Part shown: positions 58,455 through 61,199 of the stretch, one piece after another
Layout: the number at the start of each line of letters is the position of its first letter
Position numbering within the stretch: the first letter of the stretch is position 1
Assembly (NCBI RefSeq): GCF_006345805.1
Contig: NC_043019.1
Coordinates: 22,195,360 to 22,259,359 of the forward strand
Direction of reading: 5' to 3'
DNA length: 64,000 nucleotides
DNA from: Octopus sinensis
Lineage: Eukaryota
Position numbers and translations under genes: made by a program
Notes under the pieces: model-generated
What the model was told of the DNA's origin: nothing
Database searches by the model: none
Seen by the model: the letters and a program-made list of their open reading frames with translations, nothing else

Positions 58455-59630
58455 CGGGGTCTGGCTCGGGTTAATATCCCCTCAGTTATGGAGCCGGTGG
58501 GATAATCCAGAAGTGATGGGAAGAGACCAGATGATCTTACCCTCTGTCTCTGGGTAAGGGGTAGGTGCTTCGTCTGGGACGTCGCAGTCTGTGACCTTTT
58601 TTCTCCCTCCCACATCCTGGTTGCTGCGGTAAATGGAAGGGTCACAGCTTCCGTCGCCGAACGGAACAAAACCCTGGAGTAACGGAGGGGCAACAGCTAA
58701 GAGTAGGTATTGCAGCTGGATGCACAATATTAGTCATCCTATTTGTGCTAGTCATGGAGATGTCACTAAGATCAACAATCTGTGAGAAAGCTGTTACAAT
58801 GACACTATTAAGGGCTTTTATGGACATTACTGTATTATCAGAAAGTAGAGAAGCAGCAGATGGAACGTTAGAGCGGTTGGACGGGTTAATAGGATGGGTG
58901 AGAATGAAATTCAAAGTCAAGAAATCTTGAAGTGTGACATTCATGATAGGAGTCCAAAAAGAAGTGAAGTTCAGGATATGAGACGAAGAAATACCAATGG
59001 TGAAAGAACACTCTATAAAAGGTCTTGGCAGATGGTACAGTGATTTATTAAATGATAAGAAGCAAGGCAAAGAAACACGAATTAGTGGAACAGGGACTAG
59101 AGGCAATTGACAGAACAACATTACCGGGGAAATTCAAATGCTGGATACTGCAATTTGGACTGTACCCAAGGATTATATAGCTATTGTGAATGTATAAAAT
59201 AGCCTCGAATAGAGTAGAAAGGATGGAACAAAGACGCAGTGTATTGATCAGAAAATGGCTTGGTCTTCCAAAACCGCAGAATACAACTGCACTATATGGA
59301 AAACCCGTGCTGCAAGTAACAATAACATCAATCGTCGAAGAAAATAAGGACGGAAGGAAAGGCGAGGACAGTAATGGCGCTAAGGTATTCGAAAGATCAG
59401 AACATCCGAGAAAACCCTCCAGAGGTACGAACAGGGAAGAAATGGAAAGCGGAGGAAGCAGTAAACTGCGATAGGAAAGTGAAGGAATGCTAGTATAGAA
59501 GAAGCAAAAGCCGGTCTAGGGTTGCAAAATTTCAAACCATTTTGCATGAGCAGTGTAAAAGAGATGAAGGAGTAGATGAGTAGGGGCCGAAACCGGATGT
59601 GCTTCCTCCTGATGATATCCTTAGCCACTG
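58455..59630 (+). mobile_element. Internally deleted HERO-like (RLE-type) non-LTR retrotransposon
   Basis: VGIAAGCTI..ILFVLVMEM, LRAFMD, WVRMKFKVKKS, IPMVKEHSIKGLGRWY, LPGKFKCWILQFGLYPR, RKWLGLP, RTGKKWKAEEAV, KAGLG; stops and frameshifts; GC-rich structured 5' segment. Confidence 0.8.
59572..59623 (+). ncRNA. Rearranged-order hammerhead-like module 1
   Basis: GTA-GATGAG-taggggcc-GAAA-CCGgatgtgc-TTCCTC-CTGATGA-taTCCTTA. Confidence 0.45.
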
Positions 59631-59777: not shown

Positions 59778-59828
59778 GGGGTCATCAGGAGAGAATGCGT
59801 ACCGTTTCGGGGCCTTCCTCTCGATGGC
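59778..59828 (-). ncRNA. Rearranged-order hammerhead-like module 2
   Basis: GCC-ATC-GAGAG-gaaggcccc-GAAA-CGGT-acgcatt-CTCTC-CTGATGA-cccc. Confidence 0.5.
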
Positions 59829-60332
59829 GTCATTGCGTACGGGCCTTGCTTACTGAAACGAAGCCCCGTTAGCTAGATCAACTTGATGGAGTACTATTTT
59901 GTCAATCTTACCTTAAGGCACGAACCACATTGATGGGTTTAGTCGAACATAGCAACTCCTGTGTTTACTTTTTAGTCTAGTTCTAATTCGTTCGAACTCG
60001 TGTGCGCAACCGCCAGGTAATAAGGACGTAAGCAAACCAACACTGGTTGTCAAGAGATAAACACACACTATCACTCACCCCCATACATACATACACGCGC
60101 ACGCTCAACGGGCTTTCACACACTTTCCATCTTTCAGAAGATATTGATTGGCTCATGGCTATAGTAGAAGAAACTTACTCAGTGTGCTGCGCTGTGGAAC
60201 TTAACCCAAGACCATAAGGTTGTTGGGAATCAGGTTTCTTGACCACACAGCCAAGAGTTTCAACACACGAGATTCTCGGTCCTTGAGCTCATGCGTAACG
60301 ACTACAGATTATTCTTTTCTATTCTAGGCACA

Positions 60333-60513
60333 TTGGTATTGGTATTGGCGTCCTTTCTGTCTCGGGAGACAATGGAGTTGCGCATGAAGTAGTCTAGTCC
60401 GGCTTTTATATTTCATGTCCTGATACATTTCCTGCTGTGGCTGTGTAGTCCTATCCAACTAGTTTCGGGATTGTTGTCCCTCGTCAACGGGCGGTAACCA
60501 CCATGTAACCACC
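60333..60513 (-). mobile_element. Chimeric retro-insertion: hammerhead-bearing head + RTE 3' end, (AATACC)n tail
   Basis: 12-bp TSD ATTCTAGGCACA/ACTCTAGGCACA (60321-60332, 60514-60525); IGLHSHSRKC and GCGCAACTCCATTGTCTCCCGAGAC RTE terminus; TTGACGA-GGGA(caacaa)TCCC-GAAA-CTAG-TT head. Confidence 0.75.
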
Positions 60514-61199
60514 ACTCTAGGCACAAGGCCCGAATTTTTTGGGAAGTGAGCCAGTCGATTAGATCAATCCAGTATGCAAACTGGTACTTAACTTATCGAC
60601 CCCGAAATGATGAAAGGCAAAGTCCTCGGCGGAACGACTATCGATTATTGATAAAATAATGTATACTTATGTTTTGAGTCTTATTTTCCTATTTGCATCA
60701 CCACACACACACACGCACGCGCGCACACACACACACATGCGCGCGCGCGTGTGTGTATATAAATACATGTATAGATAACCTACCTTTTGCGTCACCCCCG
60801 CCCCTATACTGTCACCCGTTATTTGCACTAATATAAATTAATTTATTTCTAATTGTTACAATCGATAGCACTTTCGAATTGCGGTAATTAATCAGTTTTG
60901 GAAGGCGGGTTATGAGGGGGGATGGGCAGGAGATGTGAATTATACGAGTTAAATATATTGTTAAAAAAGAAATAGAAGTGCAATCGAAAATATTGACTGC
61001 TGCTTTTCCCAGGTTTAATTACATCATCATCATCATCATCACCATCTATGCATGTGTATGTATACATATATACATATGCGTATACGCACGCACACACACA
61101 ACACACATGCATATATATGCAATTTATTACGGGTTATGACTCGTAACTGGCCCGAACGAGTTTTTATTTCTGACTTACGGACAAAAAGATTGATATTTA

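Follow-up and report, generated by a model that had tools for sequence, protein, structure and literature searches.

The window is a 64,000-nucleotide stretch of the Octopus sinensis genome (assembly GCF_006345805.1, contig NC_043019.1, positions 22,195,360 to 22,259,359 of the forward strand). On its minus strand, positions 60515-60333 form one 183-bp insertion flanked by identical 10-mers (Table 1). The insertion has a head with hammerhead ribozyme sequence and a tail that is the 3' end of a LINE. A preliminary description, made from the letters alone, had placed hammerhead parts and a LINE end here, and every part was located. It had also let the head stop at a GUH triplet near 60457 with RTE sequence from there; the GTT does end at 60457 and the LINE runs from 60456. 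The flanking duplication it gave as 12 bp is real, but only 10 bp are perfect: 12 bp requires one mismatch, and either dinucleotide of the extension occurs in other copies of the host repeat.

The 59-nt head consists of a 10-nt tandem duplication and the hammerhead. The doubled sequence reported at the 5' end of the insert is this duplication, the 12 extra nt being a second copy of the adjoining 10 nt plus one base on either side, and it likely arose by slippage or re-priming in reverse transcription. The hammerhead is non-optimal twice, in its GUU triplet and in the U3.G8 wobble of the core. Rfam searches of the whole window at gathering thresholds gave zero matches; the window copy is without half of helix I, and with the 3' strand of that helix gone, no further cleavage is predicted for it. 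The window copy is a single retrocopy bounded by one 10-bp target duplication.

The interrupted host repeat, which we take to be SINE-like, has very high contig depth, and joints that skip the insert were seen in contigs of four sequencing runs. The path from flank through target duplication to tail is continuous in contigs from runs X1, X2 and X3 (X1 being possibly the source sample of the assembly), so the insertion is no assembly artefact on the tail side. The contigs of the four runs show loose ends of both parents at 60456/60457, and none among the contigs listed bridges the head/tail junction. One X7 contig breaks off at the target duplication, which weakly suggests an unoccupied site. 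Elsewhere in the window, positions 59582-59615 and 59782-59815 are inverted 34-nt arms, 71% complementary, with hammerhead-like words in unusual order; this pair may be a permuted hammerhead repeat.

Table 1. Position of the insertion's parts and of the repeat that it interrupts (window coordinates)
Feature	Position	Strand	Remarks
High-copy SINE-like host repeat (presumed class), interrupted by insert	60311..60624, approximate limits	-	contig depth and joints skipping the insert
Upstream target-site duplication	60516..60525	-	10 bp, perfect
12 extra nt at head 5' end	60504..60515	-	without counterpart in parent
Last 47 nt of family A 5' cleavage product	60457..60503	-	identical to parent
Hammerhead helix I 5' strand	60488..60502	-	partner strand absent here, present in parent
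Hammerhead core (U3.G8 variant), stem II and GAAA	60463..60487	-	compensatory changes among subfamilies
Hammerhead core proper	60487-60481	-	
Stem II	60480-60467	-	4 bp, 6-nt loop
GAAA	60466-60463	-	
Palindromic minimal helix III and GUU triplet	60457..60462	-	predicted cleavage after 60457
Retrozyme head/LINE tail junction	60456..60457	-	zero microhomology, zero added bases
Last 124 nt of young APE+RT LINE (RTE-like)	60333..60456	-	
LINE ORF end (IGLHSHSRKCIRT, then stop)	60454-60413	-	short 3' UTR behind
Microsatellite tail, (CCAATA)2.7	60348-60333	-	6-nt unit
Downstream target-site duplication	60323..60332	-	10 bp; matches upstream copy

Parent families of the head and the tail

The assembly search with the head returned 433 candidates, and its last 18 nt occur in 177 exact copies. 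Past the GTT, all 29 other head loci carry the helix I 3' strand, which puts the predicted cleavage site of the parent at the junction, as had been supposed from the window alone. The parent itself, which the preliminary description had left to be found, is a repeat (family A) of tandem 357-nt units with one type I minimal hammerhead apiece: one locus (L064) has four hammerhead sites spaced by 357/356/357 nt, and two others (L065, L066) are dimers. Helix II with the G10.1-C11.1 pair, a short palindromic helix III and an open helix I are found in family A, helix I being complete in the parent only, and the conserved type I core (C3 U4 G5 A6 N7 G8 A9; G12 A13 A14 A15.1; U16.1 H17) is satisfied. 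Core positions 3 and 8 are U.G in the subfamily of the window and U-A in older subfamilies, which have a compensated GAGA/TCTC stem II and GUC triplets; four helix III palindromes (CUAG, CCGG, CCGCGG and CUGCAG) occur across the subfamilies. Folded from site to site, the monomer is predicted to have paired ends (z -3.3), and no ORF is common to the 29 head loci. By this sequence organization, the parent of the head is classed as a non-LTR retrozyme with a 357-nt unit.

Measured from the cut site, family A copies tend to start near -80 and -60 and to end near +131, +172-181 and +221 (L031-L066, L095-L119), and some of these clusters may be subfamily boundaries or alignment stops. Five copies (L045, L051, L058, L101 and L105) share a foreign upstream flank, adjoined in some by an RT-like frame, suggesting a retrozyme fragment that rides inside another repeat.

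The tail belongs to a large family, with 1912 first-look candidates in the assembly search. All 183 nt were matched by the window copy alone, and 39 of 40 matches listed start at query position 60-62. Upstream of the tail, 28 of 29 other loci have a LINE ORF unrelated to the head, the remaining locus being 5'-truncated; the idea that the head is ordinary upstream RTE sequence can thus be discarded. Compared with 28 copies over 115 positions, the tail is identical at 111-114. Its terminal motifs presumably point to RTE. Longer copies have AP endonuclease and reverse transcriptase in one broken ORF, consecutive pieces of broken copies matching PF03372/PF14529 and then PF00078, and the LINE ends in a short 3' UTR and a terminal microsatellite. 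The protein neighbours of the LINE in the Atlas are unnamed RT proteins, and a comparison with the PDB gave no match. The RTE clade, according to the available part of PMC6007223, has a short 3' UTR, a microsatellite end and target duplications of up to about 13 bp. Judged by its sequence, the parent of the tail would fit this clade in its domains, its microsatellite end and the short (10-bp) duplication of the insert.

Joins at the predicted cleavage site

The register of the hammerhead is fixed by helix I pairing and by covariation among subfamilies, and the head/tail junction therefore lies exactly at the predicted cleavage site of the parent. Since neither parent accounts for a base across the junction, microhomology is zero, and since both halves belong to large families whose parents continue otherwise in nearly all loci, the join is not a product of chance. 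The junction is single-copy in the 2.7 Gb assembly. The anatomy of the insert, its parents and the exact, recurrent position of the junction are direct observations. Behind the 177 exact head ends a purine follows in three, namely in the window copy and at two loci that have other partners; the other non-parent class of following base tested behind these copies was found in 0.

A first scan of 47 positions around the site gave 18 matches. In 6 of them the family A sequence breaks off into foreign DNA, three times at the site and otherwise at about -6, +8 and +12; the remaining matches differ from the parent by substitutions, indels or internal deletions. With a second anchor, loose enough for older subfamilies (77 matches, 35 positions), the three known junctions were recovered and two more came to light. 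This second set contains 9 foreign breaks, 5 at the site and the others at -4, -1, +9 and +12, counted from the match listing with 30 loci and three sequence stretches inspected, and with one ambiguous match excluded that could be an internal deletion as well as a break near +22. The probes admit about 4/5 of foreign sequences, so that all these break counts are lower bounds. Under a uniform null, which takes no account of sequence bias in break positions, 3 of 6 breaks on the site gives P 1.8e-4 (47 positions) and 5 of 9 on one base gives P 2.2e-6 (35 positions); with the discovery case removed, 4 of 8 gives P 4.3e-5, and the two added cases alone, 2 of 6, give P 0.011. The one head end thus recurs with variable partners, as the preliminary description would expect of repeated ligation, in four more site joins with four other partners, all counted in one assembly. 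All five joins are in sense orientation. Microhomology is zero in three and 3 nt in one, while one has 2 unassigned bases; four of the five junctions are without added bases.

In three of the other joins the partner is itself a hammerhead-bearing repeat: family B at L061 (the 3 nt of microhomology), family C at L063 and family D at L407 (zero microhomology in both). Each of these partners (3/3) begins at its own predicted cut site, as set by core, palindromic helix III and helix I. The hammerhead of family C is atypical at the base of its stem II. The three chimeras terminate in (TA)n, as do the partner families. The fourth partner (L380/L409) is a second LINE family, unrelated to the tail LINE. 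Here the head comprises a complete monomer from an old subfamily, its alignment running from about +2 to site 0, and behind it stand the 2 unassigned bases and 2.57 kb of the second LINE in sense orientation. We looked for a target duplication adjoining this copy and found none, and we infer that it is a single event. The rest of the retrozyme was not found behind any partner.

Scans from the side of the partner families gave no further chimeras in 29 of 29 family C matches and in 100 of 165 family B matches; this negative is a weak one, since the two scans also missed L063 and L061. Family B as donor with a family A, family C or LINE partner was found in 0 among 61 matches. In two pattern scans subfamily variation was too strong for chimeras to stand out (490 and 382 matches, 100 listed each); family C has about 430 copies by pattern scan.

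Copy ends at the predicted sites of the repeat families were counted as well. Among 100 family B matches listed (of 165), 24 start at most 1 base from the predicted site, with 29 starts over the next 12 positions, both by eye; a script confirmed starts at the site in 6 of 30 loci, and this 5'-end excess is confounded by TA microhomology with the (TA)n target. In family C, 4 of 29 matches start at the site. Family A has no 5'-end excess there, 2 of 29 matches beginning at most 2 nt from it.

Several copies have unusual structures at or near these sites. The stem II hairpin is cleanly deleted in many other family B copies in the match listing (L298-L327). An inverted family B pair 2 kb apart (L158/L159, the same as L183/L184) ends exactly at the predicted cleavage site, and past it each copy runs on into the antisense of its own upstream sequence, folding back at the cut end. 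Another family B copy (L207) stops at the predicted cut site and is followed by an antisense SINE-like repeat, which is a nested insertion or another join. In family C (L120-L149) the two major forms are set apart by an insertion of 4 nt that lies precisely at the predicted cleavage site and may be a repair or ligation scar.

U6 gave 48 matches in the assembly, of which 28 loci were read, with most of one tandem cluster excluded. U6-headed chimeras are common among the 28 loci, and most dispersed U6 copies are joined to repeat 3' fragments or 5' starts (L332-L338, L359-L365, L370-L376). About ten of the U6 partners begin a few bases ahead of one short motif rich in G, and this shared start may point to a fixed cut site in the SINE/LINE-tail RNA behind U6. 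The tail with this motif also terminates the L409 LINE. Neither the tail LINE nor family A, B or C was found as a partner of U6 at any of the 28 loci.

Origin of the joins and its meaning

Hammerhead cleavage leaves a 2',3'-cyclic phosphate. In the reading that we favour, with a probability of about 0.6, self-cleaved retrozyme RNA was ligated in RtcB fashion to RNAs with a 5'-OH and then retrotransposed. Cleavage, the cyclic phosphate and ligation are here read back from genomic DNA. Family A transcripts would cleave themselves after GUU or GUC, two of them probably pairing by the palindromic helix III to act as a dimer, and the linear monomer would carry the cyclic phosphate. Now and then the ligase that circularises the monomer, probably RtcB, would link this end in trans to a different RNA with a 5'-OH, which would be a LINE RNA that a nuclease had broken or the 3' product that a hammerhead of another family had released. 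Retrotransposition would then fall to whichever element owns the 3' end. For the window copy, tail and target duplication suggest that the enzymes of the LINE, endonuclease and reverse transcriptase, took the LINE 3' end as the site of priming, crossed the join and halted 47 nt into the head.

That one donor end is found joined to two LINE families and also to three repeats of Penelope type argues for a shared step before reverse transcription. As described in the accessible part of PMC7229834, retrozyme monomers are circularised to 30-80% by RtcB and to 1-3% by self-ligation, and the available text of PMC6789731 reports that RtcB joins U6 with a cyclic phosphate to L1 RNA with a 5'-OH before retrotransposition. 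Since RtcB both circularises retrozymes and makes the U6/L1 RNA, mis-joining in trans would be the simplest step shared by all five partners, which are mobilised by differing machineries.

The U6/LINE-1 chimeras are the nearest known system. To the extent of the text available (Moldovan et al. 2019, PMC6789731), they share with the window copy a fixed donor 3' end with a predicted 2',3'-cyclic phosphate, followed at zero microhomology by a sense-oriented LINE whose 5' truncation varies, the whole being enclosed by a target duplication. They differ in that their donor end is made by U6 maturation, whereas here it would be made by the ribozyme of another mobile element. Their partner is L1, while the partners here are an RTE-like LINE, a second non-L1 family and the cleavage products of three other ribozymes; and RtcB dependence, described for them, is a prediction for the octopus joins. 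The window chimera works like a U6/L1 chimera, yet with a retrozyme instead of U6 as donor.

The donor resembles the non-LTR retrozymes of other animals, which in the portions seen of PMC7229834 (Cervera and de la Pena 2020) and bioRxiv 10.64898/2026.07.22.740005 (Li et al. 2026) are tandem non-coding units (150-450 bp range, here 357 nt) with one type I hammerhead and with monomer ends paired by helix I. These sources, as far as they were available, describe circularisation of the retrozyme by RtcB and Penelope-like mobilisation, and neither foreign trans-joining nor capture by LINEs was found there. The minimal hammerheads of Penelope-like elements (PMC4209133, available part) are similar in the short palindromic helix III, the U3-A8 covariation, the G10.1-C11.1 pair and the inverted neighbouring copies. 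The young octopus subfamily differs from them by U3.G8 with GUU; U3-A8 is described in the accessible text of that report and the U3.G8 variant was not found in it. This description, of 2014, is without in vivo cleavage evidence in the same text. A literature search that reached sources other than subscription journals and bioRxiv supplements found no account of LINEs, or of the products of other ribozymes, fused to cleavage products of a retrozyme, and the main text of an octopus repeat annotation (PMC13282606), in the part available, mentions neither hammerheads nor chimeras.

Several findings count against ligation. The young subfamily has the U3.G8 wobble and GUU, and minimal hammerheads cleave poorly in vitro according to the accessible part of PMC4209133. 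The 10-nt head duplication shows that a polymerase slip or jump took place in the window event. One join (L061) has microhomology, chimeras of family B as donor with a family A, family C or LINE partner are absent among 61 matches, family A lacks a 5'-end excess at its site, and the 28 U6 loci include no join with the tail LINE or with family A, B or C.

The strongest alternative, which we consider possible but clearly less probable, is an end-to-end template jump, in which the reverse transcriptase would run off the 5' end of the LINE or other partner onto the 3' end of the cleaved retrozyme, with no ligated RNA. It predicts identical exact ends. Non-LTR reverse transcriptases jump between templates and make non-templated additions (PMC8857657, available part), and the head duplication resembles a polymerase slip, as do the 2 extra bases of L409; both would fit such a jump, as would the lack of an adjacent target duplication at L409. 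For some U6/L1 chimeras template switching is likewise left possible in the text seen of PMC6789731. However, a jump would need several unrelated reverse transcriptases to hit the last base of a 3' end blocked by phosphate, added bases are absent in four of the five junctions, and in the U6/L1 system the joined RNA arises without L1 reverse transcriptase (PMC6789731, same portion). The earlier proposal that a self-cleaved RNA was joined to RTE RNA and retrotransposed is supported in this form, with ligation favoured over template switching.

Joining at the level of DNA, by nested insertion, recombination or the patching of double-strand breaks, would make the match to the cleavage site a coincidence, and we regard it as improbable and in large part refuted. 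Nested and rearranged copies do abound, other breaks and internal deletions lie near the site, and L409 is without a target duplication. Nevertheless, head and tail of the window copy lie inside one target duplication, no remaining retrozyme was found behind the partners, 5 of 9 breaks fall on one base and all in sense orientation, and the three hammerhead partners (3/3) begin at their own sites. Still less probable is trans-ligation catalysed by the hammerhead itself, with the foreign RNA replacing the helix I strand. Out of register, the LINE fragment can form a duplex with the 5' strand of helix I (-8.8 kcal/mol, compared with -9.7 for the parent), but in-register pairing beside the site is absent in the three partners tested, and self-ligation is poor beside RtcB (1-3% against 30-80% in the available part of PMC7229834). 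The LINE 5' end as a splint that replaces helix I was rejected as not significant, equal pairing being reached at 9-12% of 1230 LINE positions. Least probable of all is a new ribozyme-headed SINE family using the RTE tail, an option of the preliminary description that has the anatomy of a SINE in its favour (head, LINE tail with the recognition end kept, target duplication) but against it a junction that occurs once in 2.7 Gb, the missing helix I 3' strand and a head without promoter; for this assembly a SINE family is refuted, and the window insert is a fossil.

Both ingredients of the ligation reading, retrozymes circularised by RtcB and U6/L1 ligation chimeras, were known, as were cleavage and circularisation of retrozymes in other animals; the recurrent joins with a retrozyme as donor are real, and joining in trans with capture by other retroelements is what is new. 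Five independent joins on the predicted bond, one of them with a whole monomer, form an indirect genomic record of cutting in the germ line, despite U3.G8 and GUU, and three of them date-stamp the cleavage of three further hammerhead families. Foreign DNA that starts at predicted ribozyme cut sites could serve as a cheap readout of activity for any genome. If ligation is the true course, RtcB chimeras would reach beyond U6, and ribozyme products would recombine with each other and with LINE RNAs. We judge it an even question whether the germ line of animals more generally has a ligase-based route of RNA recombination that ribozymes supply with ends, uncircularised monomers being joined to any 5'-OH RNA, broken LINE RNAs and the products of unrelated hammerheads among them. 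If this is true, such a route would shuffle modules between unrelated mobile elements without homology, and it could give rise to new retrozymes and new heads of SINEs.
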